NCBI GenBank assembly: GCA_964406075.1
Contig: CAYOQI010000004.1
Span: forward strand, 57,718-121,717
Source of the DNA: an uncultured Pseudomonadales bacterium
Lineage (GTDB): Bacteria; Patescibacteriota; Microgenomatia; UBA1400; PJMF01
DNA length: 64,000 nt
Reading direction: 5' to 3'
In this document: piece by piece, positions 2,658 to 32,128 of the stretch
Layout: every line of letters begins with the position of its first letter
How positions within the stretch are numbered: position 1 is the stretch's first letter
The notes under the pieces: model-generated
Told to the model about the DNA's origin: nothing
What the model saw: only the letters and a program-made list of their open reading frames with translations
Databases searched by the model: none
Made by a program: the position numbers and the translations under genes

Positions 2658-4615
2658 TGATTCAAGCTTTATTTTCTAGCCTTTTTTTCTATCTCCTACC
2701 ACTAGGAACAGGGTTATTTTGTTTTTCGCTGGTTCAGCTCATTCGAGAAACTCGGAATAAAAACCAGCCACTGTATGCCAGATTTGAACATGTTGTGGAA
2801 GAGAAAATTGATCTAGTACTCCACCCACATACTTTTTCCCTAGCCTCACTGTTTTTTTACATAACTTCAGCCTTCACAACTGGAATTGTTGTACTATTTC
2901 TTCTTGCTGTCGGACTCCAATATGGAGTTGTTCAACTGTTGTCATTGCCAACATTTAGCTTTCCTCAACTCTTTTTCCCTCTAGTGTACCTATTAGCACT
3001 TAGTGGTGTTGTTCTTTCTCTGATTACTCAGAAACACTATTTTAAAAAGCTATCTAAAGCTCGATTAACGCAATTCTTACCTGTATTTCTCATCATTTTC
3101 TTGGCTATAGTCACATCTCTTCTCTGGAATTACCGCAGTCCATACTCTCTGAATTGGGATCTGTATCAACATCAATTGATGTCGAGAGTAATTATCGAGA
3201 AGCAATTTAGCCTGACTACCTCGAGCTTATCTGATACGTTTGGGTTTGATAGCTATCCTCCGACTTTCCATCTCCTGATGGCGAGTGCTCAGTGGCCTTT
3301 TGAACTGGCTCCTACTTTCATTACCAGTTTTTGGCAAATCACGGCCTTTTTTCATCTGGCATTAATAGGAATTGCATCGTATCTCCTTGCTCGATCCTTA
3401 TATCCCAATCGCTGGGTCGGGATACTTTCCATCCTGACCGGAATGTTGATATTCGATTCAGTCGTTTCTTTTACTAATATCTTTCTTCTTCCTCAAACCT
3501 TAGCTGCCTTAATTTTTACTCTAGCATTTGCCCACATCATTGCTTTTAAACCTCATTGGCTTCAGATTGCAATATATTTGGTAGCTATTTTCATGTTGCA
3601 CTATGTGGTGGGAACTCTGGCTGTCACCATCTTATTAGCCACTGCCGTAGCCTTTCGAGTAGATAGCTTTTGGTCACCGGTTACTTCTCACTTCCCTTTG
3701 CTTCCAGTTTTTTTCTTTCTTTGTCTGGTTGCCTTGATCGGAGCGCCACAATTGAATTTAAGCGGTCTTAATCAGGGTGAAGCGGCTTTATATACTTATT
3801 CCTTATCTCAAAAGTGGGAATTTGCTCTCAGAGTTTACGGCTGGTTACTGATCATTTTTCTGCCGTTATCAGCTGTCACTATCTATGAAGCCAAAAGCAA
3901 GAAATTAGCCTGGAGTTCACTTATTTTCCTCGGCTTATTAACGATAATCTCAACCCAACTTCCATACATGTTGAAGTTTTATGTTATTACCCGATTTTTC
4001 CTTCATTTCTTTTTAGCCTTGGGTATTTGGAGTATTGTGAAAACGCTTGATTTAAGAATTTCTAAAGCTATTGCCATTATTTTAGTGATTCTGACCTGTG
4101 TGGGATTGTTTGGATACAATATTTCCTTCTGGAAACATGGATTAAATTACCAGGATCAACTTACTCATCTGGATCAATCTGATCTGGATACCGCAGAATT
4201 TTTACAAAAAGTCTATGCTGATCAGGAAATACTTATGATTTCTGATCCGGCTACTCAATTTATTTTGGAAGGCTTTAGTGGGGTGAATTCGCCTGGAGGT
4301 TCATTTATGACTCCTGTAAATCGCAATCTGTTATTTCAAGCTTTATCTCAAGAAGACTCAACTCAAATAAAAAGTCGTCTCGACCAAATGACTGATAAAT
4401 TAAGTACTCAATATGACAAAAAACTCTTTGTGGTTAGCGGACGGACCTTCCTCTGGAAAACAAGTGACGAAAAGTTCAGAAACTCTTTTGATTACAACAT
4501 CTGGTCTCCTCGAGACTTATCATGGCGTGATAAAGAATTTATTGAAAAATTAGACCAGTCAGCTGACTTTTCCATTGTTTTCTCTTCTCCTGTTTATACA
4601 GTCCTAGAGTTTTAA
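2657..4615 (+). CDS. Polytopic membrane protein (~12+ TM helices plus a C-terminal soluble domain); possible GT-C-fold glycosyltransferase (ArnT/PMT/YfhO-like).
   Basis: 652 aa, with many hydrophobic segments over the first ~480 aa and then a hydrophilic ~170-aa tail. Sits immediately upstream of a DPM1-like GT2. The family assignment is inference only. Confidence 0.5.
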   Translation: MIQALFSSLFFYLLPLGTGLFCFSLVQLIRETRNKNQPLYARFEHVVEEKIDLVLHPHTFSLASLFFYITSAFTTGIVVLFLLAVGLQYGVVQLLSLPTFSFPQLFFPLVYLLALSGVVLSLITQKHYFKKLSKARLTQFLPVFLIIFLAIVTSLLWNYRSPYSLNWDLYQHQLMSRVIIEKQFSLTTSSLSDTFGFDSYPPTFHLLMASAQWPFELAPTFITSFWQITAFFHLALIGIASYLLARSLYPNRWVGILSILTGMLIFDSVVSFTNIFLLPQTLAALIFTLAFAHIIAFKPHWLQIAIYLVAIFMLHYVVGTLAVTILLATAVAFRVDSFWSPVTSHFPLLPVFFFLCLVALIGAPQLNLSGLNQGEAALYTYSLSQKWEFALRVYGWLLIIFLPLSAVTIYEAKSKKLAWSSLIFLGLLTIISTQLPYMLKFYVITRFFLHFFLALGIWSIVKTLDLRISKAIAIILVILTCVGLFGYNISFWKHGLNYQDQLTHLDQSDLDTAEFLQKVYADQEILMISDPATQFILEGFSGVNSPGGSFMTPVNRNLLFQALSQEDSTQIKSRLDQMTDKLSTQYDKKLFVVSGRTFLWKTSDEKFRNSFDYNIWSPRDLSWRDKEFIEKLDQSADFSIVFSSPVYTVLEF

Positions 4616-4736
4616 GACTCATCCGTTTAATTATTTCCATTGAACTAGCCCAGTTAACTCATTGCCAAAATCAGTTTTATTGGTTATATTCTCACCCTTG
4701 TCCTTACAATCTTTCTCTGGATCTCTTGCACTATAA

Positions 4737-4765
4737 TTGACATTTTCATTATTATAGGATATAAT
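4737..4765 (+). promoter_or_regulatory. Consensus sigma70-type promoter: TTGACA, 17-nt spacer, TATAAT.
   Basis: TTGACA is at 4737-4742 and TATAAT at 4760-4765, with an exact 17-nt spacer. The ATG of the GT2 gene at 4772 lies ~7 nt after the -10 box, which implies a leaderless or near-leaderless mRNA. Confidence 0.5.
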
Positions 4766-4771
4766 CTCCGC

Positions 4772-5560
4772 ATGATTTTAAACAAATCTATTACACTCAT
4801 CATTCCCTGTAAGAACGAGCAAGGCTCGATCCCTAAGCTTTTGCGACGTGTTCCTACATACGTTGACGAAGTGATCGTCGTCGATAACAACTCTTCAGAT
4901 AATACTTCTGAGGTTGCTCGAAAACTTGGTGCTATCGTCGTTTCTGAAAAAAGAAAAGATAAATTTGGCATTGGGTATGGATATGCTCACCAAAAAGGTA
5001 TGCGATTTGCTACCAGTGACTATATCGTTACGATGGATGGTGACCGCACTTACCCTCTCAATGAGATCAAGAACTTGGTGAAACACATGGAGAAAAACCA
5101 ACTCGACTTTGTGTCATGTACTCGATTTCCTTTAATGCGATCTCAAGCTATTACTAAAATGAGACAATTTGGTGTTTGGATTTTGAACACTGAAGTAAAA
5201 ATGTTGTATCAATATCCTATGCAAGACATATTGAGTGGTATGTGGGCTATGAATAGAAAAACCGCACGCAAACTCAAACTTATTGAAGGTGGATGGGACT
5301 TATCTCCAGAGATTAAGCTTGAAGCTTTACAAACGAAAGATTTGAAGTTTGCTGAGTATCATATTGACCATGCTCACCGAGATAATGGTGCCAGTAAGCA
5401 ACAACTCTGGACTACGGGTTTTAATCATTTAAAGTATATTGCTGTTCGTAGATTTACTCGAGATAATCCAGCTTTCCATTTTTATAAAAAGCAAGTCAAA
5501 AGCTTTCGAAAAGGCTGGGAAATGGTTCTCGAAACCTTTGCACCAAACTTAGCTGAGTAA
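4772..5560 (+). CDS. Family 2 glycosyltransferase, polyprenyl-phosphate sugar synthase type (DPM1/ArnC-like).
   Basis: N-terminal IIPCKNEQGSIPKLL...VIVVDNNSSDNT followed by a TMDGDRTYP DxD-type motif, the typical GT2 GT-A fold signature. Confidence 0.8.
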   Translation: MILNKSITLIIPCKNEQGSIPKLLRRVPTYVDEVIVVDNNSSDNTSEVARKLGAIVVSEKRKDKFGIGYGYAHQKGMRFATSDYIVTMDGDRTYPLNEIKNLVKHMEKNQLDFVSCTRFPLMRSQAITKMRQFGVWILNTEVKMLYQYPMQDILSGMWAMNRKTARKLKLIEGGWDLSPEIKLEALQTKDLKFAEYHIDHAHRDNGASKQQLWTTGFNHLKYIAVRRFTRDNPAFHFYKKQVKSFRKGWEMVLETFAPNLAE

Positions 5561-5587
5561 TTGAGATAAACACGCTAGAATAAACTC

Positions 5588-6715
5588 ATGCGTATTCTTG
5601 TCACAACTCCCTATTTTCACCCTCATCCTGGCGGAAGCCAACGATATATTGAGGAACTGTATCAGGAGTTGCTCAAAATTTCCCCTGAATCATCAGTCGA
5701 TGTGCTTACTTACAATACAGAACATGTCAAATTTCATGAAAGTTATCATGGAATTGATGTGTATCGTGTTCCCTGCTGGGAAGTTCTTCGAGGTCAATTT
5801 ACCATTCCTCATCCTCTCGCCTTGATTAAAACGCTTCGTTTCTTGAAAAAGAAACGTAATGGGTATGATGTTCTCAACGCCCATACTCGTTTTTTTGATA
5901 CGGCCTGGTGGGGTCCTTTAGCTTCTAAATATCTGAGTGCAAAATCAGTTTTAACTGATCATTGCGCTGCTCATCCAGTTCATCCTTCTTTTATCGTTTC
6001 TTCATTGACTGCTTTACTGGATAAAATTGTTATTCCAGTATTAACTCGAACCTTTGATGCCGTCACTGTCGTAAGTGATGCCACTGGAAAATTTCTCGAG
6101 TCTCAAGGTGGGAAATCGAATTACACGGTCATTTATGGTGGTATTTGGTTAAGAGATAAAAAGCTGACAAAAAAGACTAATAACCAGCTTGTGATTGGTT
6201 TTTTAGGTCGAATGATACCAAGCAAAGGCGCTCAAAGATTACTTACCCTTGCTCAAAAAATGAATACTCAGGAGAAAGATATAATTTTCAAATTTGCGGG
6301 TGATGGACCAATCTTGGAGGAATTAAAACACTCACAATCAAAGAATACACAATTTTTAGGTAAACTCAATCGGCCTCAAGTAAATGACTTTCTCGATCAA
6401 GTAGATATTCTTGTTCACCCATCCACTCATCATGAAGGTTTCCCAAGCGTCTTACTCGAAGCAGGAGCTCATGGTTGTGCTGTCGTAGCTACCCCACAAG
6501 GTGGTACGACTGAGTTGATTATCGATCACGAGACAGGGTTGATTTGTTCTGCAGACGAAAATGACATTCAATCTAAAGTCATTGAATTAATTGAGAACAA
6601 AGGATTAAGAGAAACACTCGGTAAAAAACTCCAACAAAAAGTAGATAAAGAATTTCAATGGCAGGATATTGCCAAAAAGTACAAAAACTTCCTTGAACTA
6701 GTCATTAATTCTTAA
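5588..6715 (+). CDS. Family 4 (GT-B, retaining) glycosyltransferase.
   Basis: C-terminal EGFPSVLLEAGAHGCAVVAT matches the GT4 E-x7-E donor-binding motif. 375 aa. Confidence 0.8.
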   Translation: MRILVTTPYFHPHPGGSQRYIEELYQELLKISPESSVDVLTYNTEHVKFHESYHGIDVYRVPCWEVLRGQFTIPHPLALIKTLRFLKKKRNGYDVLNAHTRFFDTAWWGPLASKYLSAKSVLTDHCAAHPVHPSFIVSSLTALLDKIVIPVLTRTFDAVTVVSDATGKFLESQGGKSNYTVIYGGIWLRDKKLTKKTNNQLVIGFLGRMIPSKGAQRLLTLAQKMNTQEKDIIFKFAGDGPILEELKHSQSKNTQFLGKLNRPQVNDFLDQVDILVHPSTHHEGFPSVLLEAGAHGCAVVATPQGGTTELIIDHETGLICSADENDIQSKVIELIENKGLRETLGKKLQQKVDKEFQWQDIAKKYKNFLELVINS

Positions 6716-7961
6716 CTACCAACCTTTTCCACTCTTTCCAAGTCAAAATCATCACCACCACTCGACTGATAATTCGAGCTACAGCGGCTCCCATCAGGCC
6801 AAAAACGGGTATTAGAAGCAAATCAAATAAGATCAGCGTACCACTGAGCAACCACCCAACTCTTGAGAAATACTGCGGATACTCAATGCTGTAAAACAGT
6901 GACGAAAATGGAACAGTCATGAAGAGTAAAAATGAAGAGATGGTTAAAATACGAAACTCAGTCAATGCCATCAAATACTCTGATCCAATTGTGTATTGAA
7001 GCAACCAGGGTGCAGTGATAATGACCGCTAAACAACTTCCCACACTTAACGCTACAATTCCCCAGCTTTTCTTCATAAACGCTTGTCGGTCAGCTTTTAA
7101 TATATATCGACTAGCTCGAATATTGAGCACATTCCCCAAACTAATTGCCAGCACACTAAATAAAAATGCTACTCGAGAAATTCCACCATAAATACCCGTC
7201 AAGTACACACCGAGGAACAGCTGAACAATGAGGACGTCAAGATTATCTGCAATCGCAATCGCAATGACTTGGACGCTATTATGTCGAAGAAACTGAGTCA
7301 AACGACCAGTCAATTCTTTCTCAAAGGTAAAGGTTGGACGTAAATATTTTTTTAACAAAAATAAAAATGGAAGTAATACTAACAACGGTAAAAGGTAGTA
7401 AATGACCGTAATACTAACGGCTGATTTCACTCCGAGAAAGATCAATCCTCCGACGATAAGTAACTTCAAAGCAGATTGCGAAATAAACATCACCATGGCT
7501 GGAATAAACCGATGAAGTGATTGATACAGACTCATACAATGTTCAAACCAGATCCCAATCAAGGCAAAAATCAACGCCGCGGGATAAATCCACCAGGCCG
7601 GAAGTTGGAATGCCCAAGTCACCACCGGAGAAAGCAATAATGCTGGAATCCACAGTAAGAGTAATTTCCACCGAAGACCAGTGATATGTTGCAAAACTTG
7701 TTGCACTTCGTGCTCTGATTTTTCTCTGGCTGTCGGCACAAATTTCTGCATGGCATACAGAAAGCCAGCATCACCAAACTTGATAAATAGCGAAAAAATA
7801 GCAAACACCAGAGAAAAGATTCCGAACTCGACCGGACCTAACATTCGAGAAATCAGGATAATTGTTAAAGCAGAAATACCTGTAGCCACCAGCGTTCCAC
7901 CAAATGTGATTACGCTCTGCTGAAAACCTTGAGAAGAAATGATTTTTTTGAAATCAACCAT
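6705..7961 (-). CDS. Wzx-like oligosaccharide flippase / polysaccharide biosynthesis protein (MOP superfamily).
   Basis: 418 aa with ~12 predicted TM helices and the hydrophobic profile typical of Wzx/RfbX. Convergent with the GT4 gene and overlapping it by 11 nt. Confidence 0.65.
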   Translation of the reverse strand: MVDFKKIISSQGFQQSVITFGGTLVATGISALTIILISRMLGPVEFGIFSLVFAIFSLFIKFGDAGFLYAMQKFVPTAREKSEHEVQQVLQHITGLRWKLLLLWIPALLLSPVVTWAFQLPAWWIYPAALIFALIGIWFEHCMSLYQSLHRFIPAMVMFISQSALKLLIVGGLIFLGVKSAVSITVIYYLLPLLVLLPFLFLLKKYLRPTFTFEKELTGRLTQFLRHNSVQVIAIAIADNLDVLIVQLFLGVYLTGIYGGISRVAFLFSVLAISLGNVLNIRASRYILKADRQAFMKKSWGIVALSVGSCLAVIITAPWLLQYTIGSEYLMALTEFRILTISSFLLFMTVPFSSLFYSIEYPQYFSRVGWLLSGTLILFDLLLIPVFGLMGAAVARIISRVVVMILTWKEWKRLVVKN

Positions 7962-8040
7962 GACTGGAAGTATAAGAGGTACAAGGCACCAGATTCAAGC
8001 AGTAAGGAAAATATGATCATCATCTGGACCTATCTGCACG

Positions 8041-8766
8041 TTAATACTCAACCCGTCGAGCATACCGGAAGTAACGAACCGGAGAGTTCAAGAATTTACA
8101 GGTGTACAAAATAATATCGGCATCATAATCAGTGATTTCTTCACCTTCTTCACCAGCATAAATCTCATACTCATATCGACGTTTATCCCAGATCACTTCA
8201 AACGTATCCCCAACTTCTAATTTATTGAGGTTAAAAAAGGAATTTTGTCGACGATAGGCGTCTGTCCACTTGAGATATCCAAAGCGGTGAGCCAATAAAA
8301 TCATCGGACCAAGACTCTCTGGAGTAGCAAACTCTGTTTCTCGCCATACACCATGGCGCAAAGAATCTTCTGGCTCCACCGATTCTCCAATTTCAGTACG
8401 AACTCCAATCTTAGGAATGACTAACCAATTTCCATCTGGCAAATTTTCATCTCGAGGAGGGAGAACGATTTCAGAGTACAAAGTTCCCTCAGAATACAGT
8501 CCTCCCAGAGGTGATTCAGGTGTCTTGGCTTCAATTTGGACTCGTTCAACGGGTACAAATTTATAAAATGTATCTGGAAATAAGAATGCTGAAGCTACAA
8601 CGATTGACCCAAACAGTCCAATGGAAGAAATCAAGGAAATCAGATGTTTCCCAATTTTTCTTGGCTGTTTCTTAGGAAGAATAGTAGTTTGCACAGCAGA
8701 CCACATGAGCCACTCTTGGACTCTCTGTTCGCGTTGTCTGGCAAAATTGATCGTTGTATATAGCAT
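8041..8766 (-). CDS. Sortase family transpeptidase with an N-terminal membrane anchor.
   Basis: TM helix HLISLISSIGLFGSIVVASAFLF. Then LVIPKIGV, ILLAHRFGY (His motif), LYTCKF (catalytic Cys in a TLxTC-like context) and a downstream Arg. The start is placed at the second in-frame ATG, because a TGGACA-17-TATAAT promoter lies between the two ATGs. Confidence 0.7.
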   Translation of the reverse strand: MLYTTINFARQREQRVQEWLMWSAVQTTILPKKQPRKIGKHLISLISSIGLFGSIVVASAFLFPDTFYKFVPVERVQIEAKTPESPLGGLYSEGTLYSEIVLPPRDENLPDGNWLVIPKIGVRTEIGESVEPEDSLRHGVWRETEFATPESLGPMILLAHRFGYLKWTDAYRRQNSFFNLNKLEVGDTFEVIWDKRRYEYEIYAGEEGEEITDYDADIILYTCKFLNSPVRYFRYARRVEY

Positions 8767-8778
8767 ATTAACTTGATT

Positions 8779-8807
8779 ATTATAGGATACTTTTCCCGTT
8801 TTGTCCA
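8779..8807 (-). promoter_or_regulatory. Candidate promoter for the sortase gene (minus strand): TGGACA, 17-nt spacer, TATAAT.
   Basis: On the minus strand, TGGACA is the complement of 8802-8807 and TATAAT the complement of 8779-8784, with a 17-nt spacer. The ATG at 8766 is 12 nt downstream of the -10 box. Confidence 0.4.
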
Positions 8808-8867
8808 GATACAACACATATAAATAGCCTTGACTTTTTTATAAAGAGCAATGAGAATGATGTCTAT

Positions 8868-9197
8868 ATGACGGAAAAACACCAGCGCTCTGCAGCAACT
8901 ATTGCAATTGAAATAGGTTCAGGCCATCCTGTAACAGAACAAGTAACAAATATTAAGGTTACTTCTGATGACATAACCAGACTTCTGTTGAGAACCTCAT
9001 CAGAAGCAGAACTGCCAAATTTTGACCTTGAAAAAACTGTAACTCAACTTACGGAACTTCAAACTGCACTTCAGCAAGAACAATTCCCAAATGGTCCAGG
9101 AGAAATTGACCCTGAACTCAATACAGCATTGCGTGAACTTTCTTCGTTTTTAAACGGCATCAAACTGATGCAAAAGTTAGCTTCTCGACCAGAATAA
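8868..9197 (+). CDS. Hypothetical protein (109 aa), acidic and helical-looking.
   Basis: Open frame with no recognisable motif. Transcribed divergently from the sortase gene. Confidence 0.35.
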   Translation: MTEKHQRSAATIAIEIGSGHPVTEQVTNIKVTSDDITRLLLRTSSEAELPNFDLEKTVTQLTELQTALQQEQFPNGPGEIDPELNTALRELSSFLNGIKLMQKLASRPE

Positions 9198-9303
9198 AAT
9201 TCTCTACTTCATTGATCATTTTTAAAAAAAACATAGATCTTTAGAATTTTTTTAGTTATTACCCACTAGTTTCGTACACGCTTTCCGCTGTTATACTACA
9301 AGT

Positions 9304-11454
9304 ATGCCCAATACCACTCTGGTCACTCTCGAGCTTCGAACAGCGCGCGATGCCACCCATACGCCAGAGGCTGCTGCGCAACTTTTTGCTTCACTTCCCA
9401 ATCCACCTCATGGTTTTTTCAATCAATTCAAATCAGCCCCCTTATGTACATTTGAAATTTTGAATCAAGGTCAGGTGACGTACTTTTTTCTAACAGTTCC
9501 CGAAGATCTGGTGACATACTTTAAAAGCCAGCTTACTTCTAATTACCCTGAAATTTTAATCAAAAACCTCGAGCATAACCCGTTTGAAGAATTATATTCA
9601 GAACTCCCCAAAGCTTTAGGTGAGCTTCGATTAAGTGCGACAAACTACTTCTCGTTAAAAACGTATCAAGAATTCAAAGATATTGATCCTTTGTCTTCGA
9701 TCCTTTCTACCTTAACCCGAGCCATGGAAGGTGATACAGCATTGATTCAATTTCAACTCCGCAAAGATCGAGAAAGATGGAAAAATCATCCTTGGTCGCT
9801 AGTGCACGATGGTATTAAAAAAGCTGATGGTACTTTCTCACCCCACCCCCAAAAATCAGAAATTGAGGCCAAGATTACTCAAACCACGCTACAAACTGGA
9901 ATTCGTATTTTGATTCAAAGTCAAAATCAAACTCAGGCTGATCAGCTCATGATGAGTCTCACTCAGTCATTCCAAAGTGTTGATTCCCAACACAATCGAC
10001 TAACATTGAAGAAACCCGCTTTTTTTAATCGAAAAAAGTTTATAAAACAAACATTAGAGAGAACTTGGGAGCCTCCCAAACAATTTTTATCGCTGTCTGA
10101 ACTGGCAACGCTATACCATCTCCCCAACGTTCAACTCTCAACTGTCAAAAATATTGCCTGGGGAAAAACATTACTCGGTGAACCGCCTGAAAATTTACCA
10201 TTTTTTGAAGTGATACCAGAAGAACAACGGACCGAAGTCAATCTTTTTGGAACTACAGAATTTAAAAATCAAAAACGTATCTTCGGTATTCGTGAACCTG
10301 ATCTACGTCGTCACATGTATGTGATTGGGAAAAGTGGAACTGGAAAATCAACGTTGCTTGCCAACATGATCATCAATGATTTAAAACATGATAAAGGTGT
10401 TGCAGTCGTCGACCCTCATGGAGATTTGATTGAGACCGTCTTGAATTACATCCCTAAGCGACGTATGAACGATGTCATCTTAATCGATCCCACTGACCCA
10501 CATGCCGTAGTGAAGTTAAATCTGTTTGAAGGTGGAACGATGATTCACCGAGAACTCATTGCTTCAGGTATCGTAGCTATTTTTCAAAAACTCTATGCAA
10601 ATTCTTGGGGACCGAGACTCGAGTATATTTTACGAAATACCCTTTTAACTCTGCTGTCTCAAAATGCCAAATTGGAAGACATCCTGAGGATGCTGACTGA
10701 CAAGCGGTATCGTCAAAGAGTGATTGAAAACATGGATGATATGGTTTTGAAAAATTTCTGGGTGGAAGAATTTGAAAAACTACAGGATAAACAACGCACC
10801 GAAGCCATCTCTCCTATTTTGAATAAAGTTGGCCAGTTTGTGACATCTCCTTTGATTCGAAATGTGGTCAATACTAATCAAAGTTCATTTAGTATCGAAG
10901 ATGCCATGAACAACGGTCAGATCATGTTGATCAACCTATCCCAAGGAAAGTTAGGTGAAGATAATACTGCCTTGCTTGGAGCGATGTTGATTACCAAAAT
11001 TCAATTGGCTGCCATGAATCGTGTCTATATTCCTGAAGAAGAGCGTCGAGATTTTCACCTCTATATCGATGAGTTCCAAAACTTTGCTACCTCTAGTTTT
11101 ATCAAAATTTTATCTGAAGCCCGCAAGTATCGATTGAGTTTAATTTTAGCCAACCAATACATCGATCAAATTCCGGATGAAATTAAGGCTGCTATTTTTG
11201 GAAACGTCGGAAGTATGGCCAGTTTCATTCTAGGAGCTCAAGATGCGGAGTGGATGATGAAAGAATTTGGGAATAAATACACCCAAGAAGATTTGGTTTC
11301 TCTTGGACGTTATCAGATCATCGTCAAGCTCATGATTGATAATCACATGAGCCACCCATTTCCAGCAGAAACACTCGGCCTGGCATCATCATTTAATCAG
11401 AACAAGGAAAAGGTTATTCGTGTATCACGAGAACGCTACGCAAGAAAACGGTAG
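9304..11454 (+). CDS. P-loop ATPase of the TraD/TraG/VirD4 (T4SS coupling protein) / DUF87-HerA-FtsK type; no N-terminal TM segment.
   Basis: Walker A VIGKSGTGKSTLLANMI followed by VAVVDPHGDL. Walker B FHLYIDEFQNF. C-terminal ANQYIDQIPDEIKAAIFGNVGS. A ~330-aa N-terminal region with no recognisable motif. Confidence 0.65.
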   Translation: MPNTTLVTLELRTARDATHTPEAAAQLFASLPNPPHGFFNQFKSAPLCTFEILNQGQVTYFFLTVPEDLVTYFKSQLTSNYPEILIKNLEHNPFEELYSELPKALGELRLSATNYFSLKTYQEFKDIDPLSSILSTLTRAMEGDTALIQFQLRKDRERWKNHPWSLVHDGIKKADGTFSPHPQKSEIEAKITQTTLQTGIRILIQSQNQTQADQLMMSLTQSFQSVDSQHNRLTLKKPAFFNRKKFIKQTLERTWEPPKQFLSLSELATLYHLPNVQLSTVKNIAWGKTLLGEPPENLPFFEVIPEEQRTEVNLFGTTEFKNQKRIFGIREPDLRRHMYVIGKSGTGKSTLLANMIINDLKHDKGVAVVDPHGDLIETVLNYIPKRRMNDVILIDPTDPHAVVKLNLFEGGTMIHRELIASGIVAIFQKLYANSWGPRLEYILRNTLLTLLSQNAKLEDILRMLTDKRYRQRVIENMDDMVLKNFWVEEFEKLQDKQRTEAISPILNKVGQFVTSPLIRNVVNTNQSSFSIEDAMNNGQIMLINLSQGKLGEDNTALLGAMLITKIQLAAMNRVYIPEEERRDFHLYIDEFQNFATSSFIKILSEARKYRLSLILANQYIDQIPDEIKAAIFGNVGSMASFILGAQDAEWMMKEFGNKYTQEDLVSLGRYQIIVKLMIDNHMSHPFPAETLGLASSFNQNKEKVIRVSRERYARKR

Positions 11455-12564
11455 TTAATTCGGTAGGGGTTCAACTTCTTGGAAACGATATGATTCTCGC
11501 TTGAGTGTATTTACTTGCTGACCAATACCTTCAAAAATCTCCTGCAGATCATTGGCATTCGTGGTTTCATACACTTTTGCAGGATCCGCAATCATTTCTC
11601 CCAATATTTTACTTCCCAACTCAAGCTGGGCTGAATTTAAAAATGATGTATTTCTATAAAATACTCCGAATAATTCATATCCGGCTTCACGCTGGTTTGT
11701 AGCAATCGTAATCGCATTATCTGAACACTCAGTGCCTGCACCCTCAGGGGCATAATTATCTAGTGACGCATAATCAAGTACTTCTCTGCTACACCCAAAA
11801 ATTGTTCCATTCGAACGAACTCCTCGATTCGCGACACCATCTGTAAAAAAGACAATGATATTTTTACGTGGAATAGGTGGTGGATCAGCTTTATCTAATT
11901 CTTCTGATGCTGATAGCATCCCAGCTCCAATATTGGTCAACTGTGTACCTCGTAAAATCTCAACTTCACCCACCCTATTAATAATCGATATTTTATCTGT
12001 ACTTAATTCATGATCAATTCTACCCTCGTTGGCATAACTAATGATGCTGATTCGATCATCTGGACCAAGTTCAATCTCATTTACCATATTTTGAATTGCA
12101 GTTTTTAAGGTATCAATGGTTGAATGCATACTACCTGAACGGTCAATCACAATTGCAATATCTAAAGGTAAATCTGCTGTGGAAGTTTCTTCGGTCACTT
12201 GGTACTGAGCTGTAAAACGCCGCTTGGCATCCCGAAAATTTGATCCGATATCAATATCGTATGTTTCAGATCCAGCATCATAGGTTAAATTTCTGGTAAC
12301 TCTAGTGTCACCAATCATGATTTCATCGGAATATGGATTTTCAGCCGGCCAACCAGGATACGTTCGTAATATTTGAAATGTGTCATACAAACCACCCTCA
12401 ACAGCATAGTACGCTTTTCTGGAATACTGCCCACTCAACGATCGTTCCGATCCAACTCTTGCTAGAAGCAACATACTAAAAAAAGCCAGTTCTAATAACA
12501 ACGCAATCACTAAAACGAGTAGTAGTGTTGACAAGCCTGATTGGTGTGAGAGTTTTTTTTTCAT
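11455..12564 (-). CDS. Prepilin-like membrane-anchored protein with a von Willebrand factor A domain (pseudopilin/tip-adhesin-like; compare TadG/PilY1-type vWA).
   Basis: N-terminal hydrophobic helix LSTLLLVLVIALLLELAFFSMLLLA, which contains a conserved Glu. MIDAS motif IAIVIDRSGSMHS plus a downstream T/D motif. This is the last gene of a four-gene pilin operon. Confidence 0.7.
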   Translation of the reverse strand: MKKKLSHQSGLSTLLLVLVIALLLELAFFSMLLLARVGSERSLSGQYSRKAYYAVEGGLYDTFQILRTYPGWPAENPYSDEIMIGDTRVTRNLTYDAGSETYDIDIGSNFRDAKRRFTAQYQVTEETSTADLPLDIAIVIDRSGSMHSTIDTLKTAIQNMVNEIELGPDDRISIISYANEGRIDHELSTDKISIINRVGEVEILRGTQLTNIGAGMLSASEELDKADPPPIPRKNIIVFFTDGVANRGVRSNGTIFGCSREVLDYASLDNYAPEGAGTECSDNAITIATNQREAGYELFGVFYRNTSFLNSAQLELGSKILGEMIADPAKVYETTNANDLQEIFEGIGQQVNTLKRESYRFQEVEPLPN

Positions 12565-12576
12565 TTGATTTTAAAT

Positions 12577-13104
12577 CTATAAAACGATCTGGTTCCTCAT
12601 CGAGACCACGATCACTTTTTCAATTCTTTCCGGATTTCCTATCGCCATTTCCAATCCAATCCGAATTCTTAAGAGCGACAAAGTTCCTTCATCTTGAAGA
12701 TTCTCAATATCAAAATCTGTCACTCGAATGTTCGATGACAGTAATGTCTTCTCATTTTTCAAAAGTACTCCGTCTTCTACTCTATAGATCGTCGTAATGA
12801 GGACACCTGGTGTCTCTTCTTTTACTACTTCTAAGCTGTCTTCAACTCCCATGTCTGTCACAATTGCCGACTCCCCCCATTGAATTTCTTGGGTTAAATC
12901 ATTGGCTAAAGAAATCATCGAGCTTTGAATAACTTCTTGCCGATCTCCGGTTCTCTGAGAACGAAAGATGTCTGTCACAATCGCTAAAATGGAAGTTATC
13001 AGCACCACAATAATTAGGAGGAAAATAATCAACTCAAACAAGGTAAACCCCGCCTCAAGATCATGGTTCTTTTTATTGTTAACTGTTAACTGGTCGACTG
13101 ACAT
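12577..13104 (-). CDS. Type IV pilin-like / pseudopilin with a prepilin N-terminal cleavage-methylation motif.
   Basis: The sequence AGFTLFELIIFLLIIVVLI fits the G-F-T-L-x-E consensus with a hydrophobic helix. Confidence 0.7.
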   Translation of the reverse strand: MSVDQLTVNNKKNHDLEAGFTLFELIIFLLIIVVLITSILAIVTDIFRSQRTGDRQEVIQSSMISLANDLTQEIQWGESAIVTDMGVEDSLEVVKEETPGVLITTIYRVEDGVLLKNEKTLLSSNIRVTDFDIENLQDEGTLSLLRIRIGLEMAIGNPERIEKVIVVSMRNQIVL

Positions 13105-13634
13105 TATTCTTCCCCTTTCTTAATCACATACATTTCATACTCAACCTCTTGGGGAATACCATTAATATTCCAGCTCACTCGTGTAATAAGTCTTAAAGTA
13201 TCGGGATCATCGATAGCATCACTGACACTTTCATCCACAACTTGAAACGTAACCGGATCTCGAACAATGTTTTGAACAAATATTTCGCGAGTGAATTTAT
13301 CTTCCAACACCTCTGTTCCATTCAGTAACTGTAAAAATGGTGAATACTCAGGGTGATATGGCTCATCAGCATCAAAACTGGTACTAAACAACTCCCAATC
13401 GGTGGTAGAACTTGCCAAGTTGTACGCAATTTCCATCCCCTCTTGAGCATGTAAACCTGCTTCTACTCTTTCCCAAGAAGTACGTTGGGAAGAAAATACA
13501 TGTTGAAAAGAGATTATGAAAAAAACAATTAAAGAGATAAAAATCCCCATAGAAATGACAGCTTCCAGCAAGAGATATCCTTGCTCAGAGTGACGCTTAG
13601 AGTGGTTGTGGTACGGTTGTGTCAAGAACGCCAT
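13104..13634 (-). CDS. Type IV pilin-like / pseudopilin.
   Basis: The sequence QGYLLLEAVISMGIFISLIVFFI fits a G-Y-x-L-x-E prepilin-type motif. Its start overlaps the stop of the upstream pilin gene. Confidence 0.6.
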   Translation of the reverse strand: MAFLTQPYHNHSKRHSEQGYLLLEAVISMGIFISLIVFFIISFQHVFSSQRTSWERVEAGLHAQEGMEIAYNLASSTTDWELFSTSFDADEPYHPEYSPFLQLLNGTEVLEDKFTREIFVQNIVRDPVTFQVVDESVSDAIDDPDTLRLITRVSWNINGIPQEVEYEMYVIKKGEE

Positions 13635-14076
13635 AAGAATTTATACGAATCTGAGTGGTAAAACGGTTTGATTGTAGTTCAAGAGTTAAATCACTTCCCG
13701 GTGGATTTGTTTCTTGCGGGGACAATTCTAGTTGCCCCGTCAATTTCCGAAAAAAAACAAGGTCTGCGGTTGAATTTAATTGAATACCATATTGATAAGA
13801 AATTTGTTTATTTTCAGGCAAAAGCAAGTAGAATCCTGGAGAAACGAATGAGATACCATAACTCTCCCCGTTTTGAGCCACACGTGATTTTTGTTGTGCT
13901 TGCTTGAGCTCAGCCACGATTTTGTCGCGTTCCTTGGTCAATCGTTGGCGCTCTAAAGTTCCAAGTAAATATGGGGTGCTCGCACCAACCACCAACGCAA
14001 TAATTGTCATCACCACAATCAACTCCACTAAAGTGAAACCAGATGAATTCTGATGTTGGGCAGAACGAAAAAACAT
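13597..14076 (-). CDS. Type IV pilin-like protein (GspH/FimT-like minor pilin).
   Basis: The sequence SGFTLVELIVVMTIIALVV is a textbook prepilin peptidase-dependent N-terminus. It is the first gene of the operon. Confidence 0.75.
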   Translation of the reverse strand: MFFRSAQHQNSSGFTLVELIVVMTIIALVVGASTPYLLGTLERQRLTKERDKIVAELKQAQQKSRVAQNGESYGISFVSPGFYLLLPENKQISYQYGIQLNSTADLVFFRKLTGQLELSPQETNPPGSDLTLELQSNRFTTQIRINSYGVLDTTVPQPL

Positions 14077-14158: not shown

Positions 14159-14189
14159 CGAAATTTGGATTTAGGGTTTAGGAAATTAG

Positions 14190-14261
14190 TGCCGATACCG
14201 GGAGTCGAACCTGGATTTAAGGTTTAGGAAACCTCCGTTCTATCCATTGAACTATATCGGC
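14190..14261 (-). tRNA. tRNA-Arg(CCT).
   Basis: The reverse complement folds as a cloverleaf: acceptor GCCGATA/TATCGGC, D-stem GTTC/GAAC, anticodon stem GAGGT/ACCTT, loop TTCCTAA (U33-CCT-A37), T-loop TTCGACT. There is one A-C mismatch in the T-stem. Confidence 0.7.
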
Positions 14262-14343
14262 TATGAGTATAAAAAATTGTCATCCATAGGCTGCCTGCCC
14301 GCCTTTGGAGGGATCGCCTTTGGCGGAAACTATGGGAGCAGTG

Positions 14344-14415
14344 TCGGGGTGGAGGGAATTGAACCCTCTGCCTCTCGGTCCCGAACCGAGCGCTCTACCG
14401 ATGAGCCACACCCCG
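14344..14415 (-). tRNA. tRNA-Pro(CGG).
   Basis: The reverse complement gives CGGGGTG...CACCCCG-A with a C1:G72 pair (typical of bacterial Pro). D-stem GCTC/GAGC, anticodon stem CTCGG/CCGAG, loop TTCGGGA (anticodon CGG), T-arm GAGGG-TTCAATT-CCCTC. Confidence 0.85.
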
Positions 14416-18791: not shown

Positions 18792-20627
18792 CTACATCTC
18801 CTCAACAGTTTGAATTCCGAGTAAGCGTAACCCTTCACCAATCACTTCTTTCGTGGCTCGAACGATATTTAGACGCAACCAGGTTTGAGGAGTGAGTTCT
18901 TTTTTATCTAACGCTTCTCCCAAAATCGTGTGCTTGTTGTAGAAGGTATTGAAAAGCTGAGCTGTTTGATAAAGATACGTGCAGAGATGATGTGGTTCGT
19001 ACAGATCAGCTGATTGTTCGACTACCTCTCCAAACTGACTTAGTTTTTGAAGTAACTCGATTTCTTCCGGTTGAAGTAACTTTGCTACTTCACGCTCACT
19101 AGAAAAATCATTCAAATCATCAAACCAAGCTTGATTAAGAGATTTTTCTAACTCGATGAATTTCTTGAGCACGCTAATCGTTCGGACATAGACATACTGC
19201 AGATATGGACCGGAGTTGCCTTCCATACTTAAGATTTCATCCCAATCAAATACCACATCGAGATGTGAAGCTCGCTTCAAGTCATTCCATTTTAATGCTC
19301 CAATTGCCACTGCCTGGACTGAGGCATGATTAACTTTTGAACTCTTCTCACTTGAACCTTGAACCTTAAACCTTTCCCCTGCCCTCTTCTTCGCTTCTTC
19401 AATCACATCATTTAGCCAAATTACATTGCCTTTTCGAGTCGACATCTTTACATCTTTAAAACGAAACATGCCATGTTTGACGTGCACTCTCTGCCCTGGC
19501 TTATACCAACCGAGCAACTCTTCAATTTTATACAGTTGTCGAAAATAAAACTCTTGCTCAGCTCCTACTTCATTGATGACCAATACATCCTCACCATACT
19601 GTTTCAATCGGAACTTATCAGTCGCCAAATCACGAGTGGCATAGAGGGTTGAGCCATCTTTTTTGAGAATCATGAGCGGAGCCAACTCTTCGTTAGGGAA
19701 AAAGAATAATTGAGCACCTTCTTTTCCATCCTTGAGGAATTTTGAAGATTTTAACTCAGATACTACCTCTGACATTTTGTCCTCAAAGTATGATTCACCG
19801 TACCCTTTTCCATTATTCTCGGTAAAATGTACATTCAATTGGGCATAGATCCGATCGAACTCTTTCCAAGACCAATCGATGCATTTTTGCCACAATTCTC
19901 GTGCTTCTATATCACCATCTTCCAGCTTTTTAAACCATGCTCGCCCTTCGTCTTCGAATTCAGGATTTTTTTCAGCTTCATCATGAAATTTGATATATAA
20001 ATCAACCAAGTCTTTGACCGGGTTTTCTGATTTTTCTATGGCCTCTAAGTCTCCCCATTTTTTGATTGCCACGATTAACTTCCCAAACTGTGTTCCCCAG
20101 TCACCCAGATGATTGTCTCGAAACACTTGATAACCTGTAGCATCTAATACATTTGCAACCGCATCACCGATGATAGTTGAACGTAGGTGACCAATAGTAA
20201 ATGGCTTAGCAATGTTGGGTGAGGAAAACTCTACGATGACTTTTTTGCCAGCATTTTTCTTTCTCGTCACCTTTCCTTCTTTTTGAATCAACTCGCCCAT
20301 TTCTGCCACATAAAAATCTTTAGACACAAAAAAATTAATGAACCCGGGTCCGGCTACTTGAATATCTGAGATTAGTGATTGGAGGTGGGAACTTTGAATC
20401 TCTTTTTTTAGTTCAACAACTAAAGCTTCAGCAAGTTGTCGTGGATTTTGAAACCTGTTCTCTGATCTCTGATCTTTGATTCCTTGTAGTGCTAAATTTG
20501 TGGTCCAATCTCCAAACCCACTTCGAGTAGGTCGATCAAGTTGAATTTCTAGTTTTTCTGAAAAGCCGAGCGCCGACAAACTGTTTTTAAGTGAGTGAAT
20601 GATGTGGTCTTGAGTTGCAGTAGACAT
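18792..20627 (-). CDS. argS: Arginine--tRNA ligase.
   Basis: Class I HIGH-region PFTIGHLRSTIIGDAV, a C-terminal DALR-type anticodon-binding region, and a length of 611 aa. Confidence 0.9.
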   Translation of the reverse strand: MSTATQDHIIHSLKNSLSALGFSEKLEIQLDRPTRSGFGDWTTNLALQGIKDQRSENRFQNPRQLAEALVVELKKEIQSSHLQSLISDIQVAGPGFINFFVSKDFYVAEMGELIQKEGKVTRKKNAGKKVIVEFSSPNIAKPFTIGHLRSTIIGDAVANVLDATGYQVFRDNHLGDWGTQFGKLIVAIKKWGDLEAIEKSENPVKDLVDLYIKFHDEAEKNPEFEDEGRAWFKKLEDGDIEARELWQKCIDWSWKEFDRIYAQLNVHFTENNGKGYGESYFEDKMSEVVSELKSSKFLKDGKEGAQLFFFPNEELAPLMILKKDGSTLYATRDLATDKFRLKQYGEDVLVINEVGAEQEFYFRQLYKIEELLGWYKPGQRVHVKHGMFRFKDVKMSTRKGNVIWLNDVIEEAKKRAGERFKVQGSSEKSSKVNHASVQAVAIGALKWNDLKRASHLDVVFDWDEILSMEGNSGPYLQYVYVRTISVLKKFIELEKSLNQAWFDDLNDFSSEREVAKLLQPEEIELLQKLSQFGEVVEQSADLYEPHHLCTYLYQTAQLFNTFYNKHTILGEALDKKELTPQTWLRLNIVRATKEVIGEGLRLLGIQTVEEM

Positions 20628-21834
20628 ATGCTTGAGTAAATTAAATTAGTTGTATTGTATACCACCATAGGTTTCTCTTCATCTCAGTAACTTTCTATAT
20701 AAAAACTTGGAAGTTATCACTACTGTAGTTTGTTAACAAATGAGATGAACAAACACTGTTCGCTTTTTATTCGTTCTTTTCACTTATTTACTCTACCCCT
20801 ACTTTTTACTTGAACAGAGCGATTTCTTTTTGTTTCCATTTGATTTTTAATTTCTTTTTAACTAATTATTATTTTAATTAAATAGTAATTTTAAATTGAT
20901 ATTTCCACTCTTTTTAATACAATAAAATGTATTCAATAATTTAAATTAGAAAATATATTCGTGTTTAGTTTGGAGAATGAAAAAAATGACAATTTTGGAG
21001 TTTTTTTTATTATTGAATCTTCACGAAAGTATTTCTCACCGAAAAAACTTCGATGTCCGATTATTTTCAACAAACACAACCAGTGTTTTCTTCACTCGCC
21101 AGGCAATTATCATTTCTCATTGAATATTCTCTCCAGGCGTAAAGTTCTCCACGAGCTACACGCTGAATTCGTTTTAGATTGATTGATCAATGCAATATTG
21201 TTTCTGTATTCTTCGGTTTATTTAACCATCAATTTACAGCAACTTGATCAAGAGAGGACTGATCCAGCAATCTTTTTTACCACACATTTAGTTAGCACTC
21301 GGTAAGAATACTGCTAGTTTTAGCCATTGTGATTTCTCCTCAAGAGGATTGATGTCTACACGTTTCAATATCTTTAAATATTTCAGTGTTTATCATCATA
21401 GAACTCGAGATAATTAGAACTCGAACGATATAACCTTCAAAAATATTCTGAATTAGATGTACATAGTGACATGATCTGTTTATTCAGAGACAAAATCAGG
21501 AAATTAATCTCACAATACTCTCCTGTTTACTCAAGTTCACCTATGTTTGATGTGATCTCTGTTTTCACTACAGATTTCTTAAGTTGTAACTACCATTGCA
21601 GTTGAGAATAAGCTTCATGTTTCCCTCAAGAAAAACCTCTAAGTTCCATTTCATATTACGTCTACTCGAGGGGAAATCTAAAATGAGGAGTGCTACATGT
21701 GCTGACCAACTCATAAAGATGCCGAAATTGGGCAAATGACAGGGTTGGTATCTCTGCACATTTCATAAAAAATTATTGAGGAAGAATGCATTCCAGTGAG
21801 GATTTAAAATCAGTGATGAATGATCTACTTTTTC

Positions 21835-22746
21835 TTACTTTTCTCGAGAAGGTTTGACTTCATACCCTCTTCCATCACTGATAATTTCAATGTGTCCATG
21901 TTGGCTTGTTGTGTATATTTTGATATTTCTATATCGAAGTATATCAATTACTCGAGTGTGAGGATGCCCAAAACTATTGTTTTTGCCCACTCCCATCAAT
22001 GCAGTTTCGGGTCTGGATGCCATGATGAATTCCTCATGTGTTGAGTTTTTAGAGCCGTGGTGGGATACTTTTATTACATCGATGTCCTTTATCACATGCT
22101 CTCTTGTTAGTGATAACTCAATCTCACTACTGATGTCACCAGCAGACAGCATCCTGAACTCCCCATATCCCACATAGCCAGATACAGAAAGGTCATTATC
22201 ATTTTTTTTACCTTTGTTTTTTACCATTCGATTTGGGTCTTGTTCTTGTTCGGTCTTTTTAAAAACAGAAATATCTTCTACCTCTGGCCAGATACTTAGA
22301 AAAGTCACGTCCGTTTCTCCATTTTCAATGGTTATTTTCTTTCCTTGAGTAAGTGTATGAGTCTCTATCTGGTATTTTTTTATTATTTCTTCAATTGCTT
22401 TACTGAGTTCTGTGGGCTCCCATGGTGGATTGCGAAAAATAACACCAACTTTATATGAAGTAACTATCGATTTAATCCCCGCAGCATGATCTGCATCATC
22501 ATGCGTTAATACTATTACTTCAATATTCCTGTCCCAAAATGGCATGAATTCCCCAAGACAGTCCAATACAGCGTCACTTGGTCCGGTATCAATCAATAGT
22601 TGATGAAAATGCAGATTGATAAGTATCGCATCTCCTTGGCCGACATCACACATGACCACATGAAGTTTATCATCAGGCCACTTCCACCAAATTAAAAAAA
22701 ACAGAAGTATTAATCCAATCAATAGTACATACAGAGCCTTTTTCAT
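21835..22746 (-). CDS. ComEC-type metallo-beta-lactamase fold domain protein, encoded separately with its own N-terminal TM anchor.
   Basis: HVVMCDVGQGDAILIN, LLIDTGPSD, VIVLTHDDADHAAG and VSHHGSKNS match the MBL domain that normally forms the C-terminus of ComEC. The N-terminus carries the TM helix LYVLLIGLILLFFLIWW. The start overlaps the ComEC stop (ATGA). Confidence 0.8.
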   Translation of the reverse strand: MKKALYVLLIGLILLFFLIWWKWPDDKLHVVMCDVGQGDAILINLHFHQLLIDTGPSDAVLDCLGEFMPFWDRNIEVIVLTHDDADHAAGIKSIVTSYKVGVIFRNPPWEPTELSKAIEEIIKKYQIETHTLTQGKKITIENGETDVTFLSIWPEVEDISVFKKTEQEQDPNRMVKNKGKKNDNDLSVSGYVGYGEFRMLSAGDISSEIELSLTREHVIKDIDVIKVSHHGSKNSTHEEFIMASRPETALMGVGKNNSFGHPHTRVIDILRYRNIKIYTTSQHGHIEIISDGRGYEVKPSREK

Positions 22747-28080: not shown

Positions 28081-29789
<1,709 letters not shown>

Positions 29790-32113: not shown

Positions 32114-32128
32114 GGGCAGTCTGTTTTC

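Follow-up and report, generated by a model that had tools for sequence, protein, structure and literature searches.

A putative type IV minor-pilin operon with a von Willebrand factor A-type subunit beside an anchorless VirD4/VirB4-related ATPase and a sortase in a Patescibacteria genome

The stretch of DNA analysed here, referred to as the window, is 64 kb long, with a G+C content of ~39%. Between positions 8041 and 14076 it carries a sortase gene, a gene for a 716-aa P-loop ATPase and an operon of four genes for type IV prepilin-like proteins, the last of which has a von Willebrand factor A (vWA) domain (Table 1). The gene content of the window is typical of Patescibacteria, the Candidate Phyla Radiation (CPR), including as it does a split comEC, an F-type ATP synthase, aminoacyl-tRNA synthetases, glycosyltransferases and giant open reading frames (ORFs). 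Named homologues of its proteins come from Woesebacteria, Cerribacteria, Pacebacteria and metagenome-assembled genomes (MAGs) of the 'Patescibacteria group'. An earlier note, made from the sequence of this DNA, had listed the same genes, all of which are present where it placed them, and had proposed that together with comEA and comEC they form one DNA-uptake or adhesive-fibre system in which the ATPase replaces or supplements PilB/PilT. Pfam and NCBIfam domain calls were judged against curated cut-offs (gathering scores), and because the domain matches exceed these thresholds the listed features are more than chance motifs. All statements of gene absence refer to the window, the genome beyond it lying outside their scope.

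Table 1. Genes and other features at and near the locus, with their positions in the window
Feature	Position	Strand	Evidence or remark
Sortase	8041-8817	-	Pfam Sortase E = 8.6e-9; N-terminal hydrophobic segment
orf109, 109 aa, coding status doubtful	8868-9197	+	Spacer between sortase and ATPase genes
Soluble ATPase related to type IV coupling proteins and VirB4, 716 aa	9304-11454	+	TrwB_AAD_bind 1.1e-12, DUF87 1.9e-7
vWA minor pilin, 369 aa, putative tip adhesin	11455-12564	-	VWA E = 1.5e-14
Prepilin, 175 aa (G↓FTLFE), third operon gene	12577-13104	-	Motif and hydrophobic helix
Prepilin, 176 aa (G↓YLLLE), second operon gene	13104-13634	-	Motif and hydrophobic helix
Prepilin, 159 aa (G↓FTLVE), first operon gene	13597-14076	-	Pfam N_methyl 1.9e-8, above gathering score
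tRNA-Arg(CCT) and tRNA-Pro(CGG)	14189-14415	-	ARAGORN, Rfam
comEA, comEC Competence domain, separate metallo-beta-lactamase gene	21835-24865		8-11 kb away

The ATPase and vWA genes converge, and their stop codons (11454/11455) adjoin each other without a spacer. No terminator-like site was found at this junction (11452-11457), the nearest ones lying inside coding sequences, and the ATPase and vWA-pilin transcripts would overlap antisense at the abutting stops. At the same junction a 127-aa gene resembling 23S-rRNA-IVP/bAvd is inserted in the related locus L006 and a 72-aa ORF in L090. The sortase gene is divergent from the ATPase gene and shares no operon with it. The competence genes reported in the earlier note are likewise in place; comEC is split into a 503-aa Competence-domain gene and a separate 303-aa metallo-beta-lactamase gene (21835-24254), with overlapping stop and start, and the same split occurs in the relative L091. 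The window was found to hold no gene for a prepilin peptidase, an assembly ATPase (PilB/GspE), a platform protein or a major pilin, and none for a relaxase or for the type IV secretion system (T4SS) proteins VirB4, VirB6 and VirB3. The absence of PilB/PilT had been remarked on before, and no Pfam-scanned ORF of the window matches that GspE-type family.

The pilin operon and its vWA subunit

The four genes of the operon are closely packed: the first and second overlap by 38 nt, the second and third by 1 nt, and the vWA gene follows 12 nt past the third. The three small prepilins carry the signals GFTLVE, GYLLLE and GFTLFE, with Kyte-Doolittle maxima of 2.6-3.5, so that the three consecutive prepilins with tight or overlapping frames described previously are confirmed by the sequence. 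Among the three it is solely the 159-aa protein that scores above the Pfam N_methyl cut-off. This first prepilin also matches NCBIfam GspH (1.7e-11; 44 bits against a cut-off of 80) and IV_pilin_GFxxxE (9e-6), the second matches ComGE (2.1e-4, below cut-off), and the third matches HpsC (1e-5) and ComGF (8.5e-4), both below cut-off. Sequence searches of the PDB with the small pilins returned weak matches to the N-terminal helix or noise, and were uninformative.

Gene order and these weak profiles suggest that the three prepilins are, in turn, GspH/FimU/ComGD-like, GspI/ComGE-like and GspJ/ComGF-like. On these assignments the four consecutive genes would stand in the order of the core minor-pilin sets GspH-I-J-K of the type II secretion system (T2SS), FimU-PilV-PilW-PilX of type IVa pili (T4aP) and ComGD-GE-GF-GG of the Com pilus. 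As with GspK, PilX and ComGG, the fourth subunit is larger and lacks a Glu at position 5. The window operon differs from these sets in that its assignments all fall below curated cut-offs, its fourth subunit carries a vWA domain, and neither a major pilin nor an assembly gene is part of it.

The vWA protein begins with a Gly followed by a long hydrophobic helix, having Leu rather than Glu at +5. Its metal-ion-dependent adhesion site (MIDAS) is complete. Three orthologues keep the residues concerned (D141-x-S143-x-S145, T210 and D242) unchanged, along with an N-terminal QxGxSTLLL and the A51/A54/E56/G57 motif (AxxAxEG). This conservation is seen between orthologues that share 32-51% identity, the values to the window protein being 51% and 32%. 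The N-terminal features resemble those of PilX, GspK and ComGG subunits, a likeness that no profile confirmed: a Pfam scan of residues 1-128 at E up to 1 returned no family, and neither PilX_N nor GspK. On the strength of its motifs and the gene order, the protein may be a fourth subunit in the PilX/GspK/ComGG gene position.

An AlphaFold2 (AF2) model of the vWA protein, for which the input was one orthologue plus distant vWA proteins, has a mean predicted local distance difference test score (pLDDT) of 78 and consists of a helix (residues 5-68), a four-strand sheet (78-123) and the vWA domain (134-356). When the model was compared with known structures by Foldseek, the best PDB matches included Streptococcus sanguinis PilB (7ba2/7b7p), with E of ~3e-12 to 9e-12 over 350-368 alignment columns for a protein of 369 aa, together with the tip adhesins SpaC, PitA and Mfa5. 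These vWA adhesins span three unrelated pilus types, SpaC and PitA being sortase-assembled, Mfa5 belonging to type V pili and S. sanguinis PilB to type IV pili. In a search of 5.8 billion proteins a single homologue extended past the vWA domain. From sequence and model, the protein is predicted to be a modular pilin that joins a pilin module to a vWA domain whose MIDAS is complete. The vWA/MIDAS tip-adhesin-like pseudopilin of the earlier note has held up on the VWA domain match, the intact MIDAS and the Foldseek match to S. sanguinis PilB, and the evidence supports an operon of four type IV prepilin-like proteins that ends in such a subunit.

S. sanguinis PilB is a vWA modular pilin and tip adhesin, and modular pilins are reported to be widespread (PMC8179133). 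The window protein resembles it in having an N-terminal hydrophobic helix and a small beta-sheet ahead of a vWA domain with a complete MIDAS, in being encoded with other minor pilins, and in its predicted role as a tip adhesin. The two differ in that identity is ~14-15%, the window protein has 369 aa rather than ~460 aa, and it is without the canonical class III signal with Glu5, which makes it PilX/GspK/ComGG-like. A second comparison lies within the Patescibacteria. In the Saccharibacteria strain TM7x (Nanosynbacter lyticus), PilX1 and PilX2 are the largest minor pilins, with accessory domains and without a PilD signal, and PilX2 mediates host binding (PMC11623550). Like them, the window protein is the largest pilin of a minor-pilin locus and has an accessory C-terminal domain and no predicted PilD signal. 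A tip-adhesin function is proposed for both, that of the window protein being a prediction from sequence and model. The accessory domains are, however, a beta-jelly roll or a seven-bladed beta-propeller in TM7x and a vWA/MIDAS domain in the window protein, and no sequence homology between them was detected.

Many CPR bacteria are reported to have type IV pili and competence genes, and in Patescibacteria genomes PilB and PilT are generally carried elsewhere (PMC6744442). By analogy with S. sanguinis PilB and the PilX-type pilins of Saccharibacteria, an order of assembly and a role in adhesion can be inferred for the operon. The minor-pilin set would belong to a type IV pilus for which other parts of the genome supply the major pilin, the prepilin peptidase and the PilB/PilC machinery. 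The peptidase would cleave the three subunits that have canonical G↓(F/Y)xLxE signals, and the cleaved pilins would then assemble with the vWA protein into a priming complex destined for the pilus tip. There the vWA domain may attach, through the metal site of its MIDAS, to a ligand carried by a host or partner cell.

The operon in related genomes

Related loci were collected in three sets: five genome loci from a scan of genome contigs with a single ATPase protein as query, 80 metagenome loci for which the query was an alignment of 27 ATPase homologues, and eight contigs from exact-protein look-ups. Close relatives share a backbone made up of the genes for the sortase, the ATPase, tRNA-Arg(CCT), tRNA-Pro(CGG), nucleoside diphosphate kinase (NDK), an M16 peptidase, Wzy, arginyl-tRNA synthetase (ArgRS) and comEC. 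In three of the eight close relatives, the window counted, the pilin operon fills a slot in this backbone that is bounded by tRNA-Arg on one side and by the 3' end of the ATPase gene on the other. These are the window itself (ATPase identity 100%), L006 (86%) and L090 (74%). The slot is empty in L091 (78%), contains one small ORF in L007 (71%) and is filled by a methyltransferase gene and a ribbon-helix-helix (RHH) domain gene in L092 (69%); in L089 (~56%) RadA follows the ATPase gene instead. In L007, L090, L091 and L092 the two tRNA genes separate the ATPase gene from NDK, with cargo that differs or is absent. Outside the clade, 64 loci offer 1.5 kb or more of downstream sequence, and in none of them does a pilin operon adjoin the ATPase gene.

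The vWA protein also diverges faster than the neighbouring ATPase, the two orthologues being 51% and 32% identical to the window protein where the ATPases are 86% and 74% identical. The operon is not tied to the ATPase, because it is absent from the same backbone in relatives and because the vWA protein evolves faster. As judged from these comparisons, it is a fast-evolving accessory cassette, predicted to be surface-exposed, in a tRNA-adjacent variable slot, and not a partner of the ATPase.

These observations bear directly on the proposal that sortase, ATPase, pilin operon and com genes are one DNA-uptake or adhesive-fibre system with the ATPase in the place, or at the side, of PilB/PilT. 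The genes stand near one another in the window, in L006 and in L090, no PilB/PilT gene occurs in the window, and comEA and comEC are 8-11 kb away, all of which would suit a single system. The synteny comparison that the earlier note had suggested nevertheless speaks against it, since the operon is next to the ATPase gene solely in those three loci. It is missing in L091, L007, L092 and L089 while the ATPase gene, the tRNAs, NDK and comEC stay, comEA/comEC being retained in relatives that do not have the operon, and it follows the ATPase gene in 0 of the 64 distant loci. Furthermore, the ATPase gene is convergent with the operon, and PilB and PilT are in general located elsewhere in Patescibacteria genomes (PMC6744442). 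With the ATPase itself falling outside the GspE-type motors, as described below, a single system is barely credible.

No att-like direct repeats were found on the two sides of the pilin operon. The sole find was a 20-nt repeat (95% identity; 14166-14185 and 14212-14231) in which an internal part of tRNA-Arg(CCT) is duplicated 46 nt away; the partial duplicate is situated past the 3' end of the tRNA, where the variable slot adjoins it, and could be the scar of an old integration. Toxin-antitoxin genes (MNT/HepT, PIN, Phd/ParE, BrnT/CopG and AbiEii) flank the ATPase gene on both sides in L007, L090 and L092, a build-up which marks its neighbourhood as a hotspot for accessory genes.

The anchorless ATPase

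The 716-aa ATPase matches the Pfam families TrwB_AAD_bind (48.1 bits against a cut-off of 20.5, residues 335-658), DUF87 and TraG-D_C (3.2e-4), the DUF87/HerA central domain match being above the gathering score. Its Walker A motif, GKSGTGKS, is at residue 342 and its Walker B motif, LYIDE, at residue 586. No membrane helix was found, the 19-residue Kyte-Doolittle maximum being 1.37. Domain matches and hydropathy therefore agree with the earlier description of a TraD/VirD4/DUF87-type ATPase without a membrane anchor, convergent on the operon. The N-terminus (~1-280) is PF26449 (DUF8128), a soluble alpha/beta domain, according to annotation precomputed on P0001 and homologues. An AF2 model has a pLDDT of 78, with ~90 for the N-terminal domain, and contains an all-alpha insertion at ~413-536.

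Sequence and structure comparisons place the protein differently within the superfamily. TrwB was the sole match in a sequence search of the PDB, and the NCBIfam VirD4-like CD1115 family was matched at 8e-9, far below cut-off. By Foldseek the model is closest to TrwK/VirB4 (5.7e-11), followed by DotL (3.8e-8), HerA (3e-6) and TrwB (8e-6). The alignment with TrwK/VirB4 covers ~870 columns and both domains, with a TM-score of only ~0.37, and the sole VirB4 profile matched was NF045975 (4.2e-4), over 35 residues at the P-loop. T2SSE/GspE was absent among the 18 Pfam and 22 NCBIfam matches at E up to 0.1, and among the 50 best-ranked Foldseek matches. As far as sequence and model indicate, the ATPase is on the VirD4/VirB4/HerA side of the superfamily and is not a GspE/PilB-like motor; its sequence is closest to coupling proteins, whilst its predicted whole shape is closest to VirB4. 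The profile check envisaged in the earlier note, VirD4/TraD against VirB4/HerA/FtsK, accordingly came out divided, the coupling proteins being upheld by sequence and VirB4 being nearest by fold. The idea of a non-canonical pilus motor fares worse: there is no GspE/T2SSE match, TrwB, VirB4, DotL and HerA come first in sequence and fold comparisons, and the gene converges on the operon.

The protein shares with VirD4, TrwB and TraD a TrwB-type nucleotide-binding domain and an all-alpha insertion. It differs from them in having no N-terminal transmembrane anchor, ~280 residues of soluble DUF8128 standing there instead, in the absence of relaxase and T4SS genes from the window, and in an NCBIfam equivalog score of 34.8 against a cut-off of 250. 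With VirB4/TrwK of R388 (PDB 8RTD, 7O42 and 7O43), its best Foldseek match, it has in common a soluble two-domain form. It is set apart from that protein by the TM-score of ~0.37 at a root-mean-square deviation of 13 Angstrom and by the lack of any weighty Pfam or NCBIfam VirB4 match; moreover, genuine VirB4 genes are recognised separately in Patescibacteria (PMC12102498). The ATPase would probably be a hexameric NTPase of the FtsK/HerA superfamily in which the soluble DUF8128 domain replaces the membrane anchor. It would most likely serve a monoderm-type T4SS-like apparatus, or have been exapted for DNA or protein handling, and would have no part in pilus assembly.

More than 6,400 homologues were found at E <= 1e-5 among 8,000 candidates scored. 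The best 120 matches are 55-100% identical over full length, and their named sources are Patescibacteria, Woesebacteria and Cerribacteria. A published survey counted 5,713 VirD4-type homologues in 2,918 Patescibacteria genomes, of which 148 are near virB4 (PMC12102498). The window ATPase fits this survey because its gene is away from any virB4, like ~97% of Patescibacteria homologues (PMC12102498), and by its sequence it is a member of the conserved orphan 'T4CP homologue' (type IV coupling protein homologue) family found across Patescibacteria. In S. epibionticum the T4CP homologue is non-essential for epibiotic growth whilst T4SS genes are essential, and according to the survey exaptation of the orphan homologues stays possible (PMC12102498). 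The T4SS cluster of S. epibionticum is without a recognisable coupling protein (PMC10633639).

Two further observations concern the extent of the family. The complete genome L003 (CP011212.1), which bears the label 'candidate division TM6 bacterium GW2011_GWF2_28_16', has an ATPase homologue that is 52% identical in a layout almost the same as that of L002 ('Candidatus Microgenomatus' MAG), so that either the family extends beyond Patescibacteria or the label is a misfit. A 717-aa ORF of the window (60143-62296) was considered as a paralogue of the ATPase and rejected, being an unrelated tetratricopeptide repeat (TPR) protein.

The neighbours of the ATPase gene vary by lineage and are mostly housekeeping genes, with SecDF, MnmA, TopA and Rho recurrent and UvrD in others. 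The most frequently conserved neighbour of the family is a gene combining Sigma70_r4 and HARE-HTH (helix-turn-helix) domains, which stands directly upstream on the same strand in 20 related loci; an example of ~350 aa is found at 8610-9716 of L060 (Sigma70 region 4 at 3e-15, HARE-HTH at 1.5e-11). In L018, L023 and L027, by contrast with the usual setting, prgI, a trsD-like gene and a probable virB4 of ~650 aa form a cluster that is divergent from an ATPase homologue 46-48% identical to that of the window. Members of this cluster include PrgI (Pfam 5e-9) with a C-terminal CarboxypepD_reg domain and two genes of ~650-750 aa, and several ORFs of ~100-140 aa nearby look by eye like T4SS pilins. 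In L018 the cluster is situated at ~4165-9867 and 19651-21536, and the layout is likewise in L023 and L027. By its gene content it looks like a Patescibacteria monoderm-type T4SS locus. These three loci were found among ~54 informative relatives. The genes dnaA and dnaN are also near this cluster.

An alternative is suggested by such neighbours, namely that the ATPase is a housekeeping DNA or nucleoprotein translocase of the FtsK/HerA kind which works with the Sigma70-r4/HARE-HTH protein and is unrelated to secretion. The position of the sigma-like gene in the 20 loci, the presence of UvrD, RadA, TopA and Rho among the neighbours, the strong conservation of so large a family, the dispensability of the S. 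epibionticum homologue for epibiotic growth where T4SS genes are required (PMC12102498), and the DUF87/HerA central domain are all in its favour. Yet where the sigma-like gene occurs, the ATPases are the most divergent of all (33-54% identity) and may be paralogues. By sequence the protein matches coupling proteins best (TrwB_AAD_bind, TraG-D_C and the VirD4-like CD1115), and three loci put the gene beside a T4SS cluster. On this evidence a housekeeping translocase is unlikely. The earlier note had itself raised the question of a housekeeping family, and the answer is mixed: by homology the protein is of the secretion type, whilst it is indeed an orphan whose genes lie mostly among housekeeping genes across Patescibacteria.

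The sortase and the relation between the three modules

The sortase scores 35.6 bits against a Pfam cut-off of 26.6 and has a single N-terminal anchor, the hydrophobic segment at residues 62-80, in keeping with the membrane-anchored sortase first noted here. A promoter-like site (8807-8779) is located ahead of the ATG at 8766, and this codon is probably the true start, giving a protein of 241 aa that matches P0152 as well as the position of the promoter-like site. The search found 306 homologues, and in the 31 compared, of 40-74% identity, the His-Cys-Arg triad (H160, C223 and R231) is invariant; because of this invariance the sortase is probably an active enzyme. A sortase family enriched in CPR bacteria (fam000526) is reported to be nearly ubiquitous in Microgenomates (PMC6744442), where sortases of the type found in the window are common. 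The window protein shares with that family and with the monoderm sortases of classes A-F the sortase domain, the N-terminal anchor and the conserved triad. It differs from the monoderm classes in its motif, YTCKF rather than TLxTC, in falling below the cut-off of every curated NCBIfam class (the class D and class E scores are far below), and in having no LPXTG-type substrate encoded nearby. As already observed in the earlier note for the neighbouring proteins, a C-terminal sorting signal (an LPXTG-like motif, a hydrophobic stretch and a basic tail) is missing, in fact from every ORF of the window. Neither the window nor five related sortase loci yielded a credible substrate, the matches being polytopic membrane proteins, and the substrates would be encoded elsewhere in the genome.

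The spacer between the sortase and ATPase genes contains orf109, for which no Pfam or NCBIfam family and no homologue in related loci was found. In its position L006 has a gene for a 320-aa membrane protein, L007 an MNT/HepT toxin-antitoxin pair and L090 a 63-aa ORF. The possibility that orf109 is the remnant of a conserved sigma-like upstream gene was rejected, as it has no homologues; so was the same suggestion for the 320-aa gene of L006, which is unrelated and resembles a polytopic membrane protein.

The divergent sortase-ATPase pair is found in seven of seven clade members with visible upstream sequence, the window counted (the others being L006, L090, L091, L007, L089 and the contig carrying P0097), at ATPase identities of 56-100%. 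The gene beyond the sortase changes between a flippase, an epimerase, a 360-aa unknown, a 1358-aa membrane protein and Rho, and beyond the ATPase gene there is the pilin operon, the tRNAs with NDK, or RadA. Outside the clade, a sortase gene is near the ATPase gene in one of 54 informative loci (L040; Pfam Sortase 7.2e-17). The search used a profile hidden Markov model (HMM) from three close sequences, and a second HMM from 120 homologues led to the same outcome outside the clade. In the sister group, made up of L002, L003 and L005, Rho comes first and is followed by a small unrelated gene and the ATPase gene.

Another reading is that sortase and soluble ATPase form a clade-specific functional pair, for example in a monoderm T4SS-like or surface-display pathway, to which the pilin operon would be an unrelated neighbour; a sortase-anchored surface protein could cooperate with an export step driven by the ATPase. 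Gram-positive conjugation systems employ sortase-anchored adhesins. The pair is kept across the seven clade members while the outer flanks change on both sides, it recurs independently in L040, and equal-sized contigs of 3-7 kb in both homologue tables suggest that further pairs exist. Despite this, the frequency outside the clade is about the level of chance, a relative with 65% ATPase identity has UvrD upstream in place of the sortase, and the sister group has no sortase at the ATPase gene. The spacer tolerates insertions (a toxin-antitoxin pair, a membrane protein and orphan ORFs), no substrate with a sorting signal is encoded near the pair, and divergent pairs can persist within a clade through slow rearrangement alone. 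A functional pair of this kind thus seems quite improbable. It is a very doubtful further step to view sortase and anchorless DUF8128/TrwB ATPase as co-evolving in one Microgenomates clade, with the ATPase acting in a sortase-linked display or export pathway. If true, this would provide a first function for a protein family found in thousands of Patescibacteria genomes, and one that is neither conjugation nor that of a pilus motor.

Together this evidence suggests that the locus is probably a set of three functionally independent modules, the pilin operon, the orphan ATPase and the sortase, standing side by side in a Microgenomates-type Patescibacteria genome. Each kind of module is already described for Patescibacteria, and no new kind of machine is indicated. 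A number of points weigh against this reading. The H/I/J identities of the small pilins derive from sub-threshold NCBIfam matches and gene order, and the pilin module of the vWA protein is modelled at moderate confidence (pLDDT ~60-76). The location of PilB, PilC, PilD, the major pilin, a T4SS and the sortase substrates elsewhere in the genome is assumed from Patescibacteria generally. Finally, the sortase-ATPase pair has been conserved although its outer neighbours are of five or more kinds, which makes a functional link between these two modules conceivable, if with a slender chance of being real.

Elsewhere in the window, two giant ORFs on the plus strand (36772-52173 and 52448-59968) have a G+C content of ~43-46%, against 39% for the window. 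The first encodes 5133 aa, with an N-terminal MerR-type HTH as its sole recognisable domain, and the second, of 2506 aa, contains eight LamG/concanavalin-like lectin domains; a C-terminal sorting signal is absent from both. Genes without a Pfam family adjoin an F-type ATP synthase operon (28344-35829). One ORF without a Pfam family (34903-35829) resembles the c-subunit at its C-terminus by eye. According to a 2026 preprint, the CPR-specific Pam pilus operon typically adjoins ATP synthase genes in Microgenomatia (10.64898/2026.03.03.709456).

For the three independent modules favoured here, the interest of the ATPase lies in the size and high conservation of its family in Patescibacteria. Its VirB4-like anchorless architecture may guide experiments, as may the clade-dependent neighbours of its gene, be they a sortase, a sigma-r4-HARE-HTH protein or a T4SS cluster. 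Patescibacteria rely on surface appendages to attach to host cells and exploit them, and the vWA-capped minor pilin would represent a further type of adhesin among the modular tip pilins already known in these bacteria. The tRNA-adjacent variable slot in which its operon is found suggests that such tip adhesins may be swapped like accessory cassettes.

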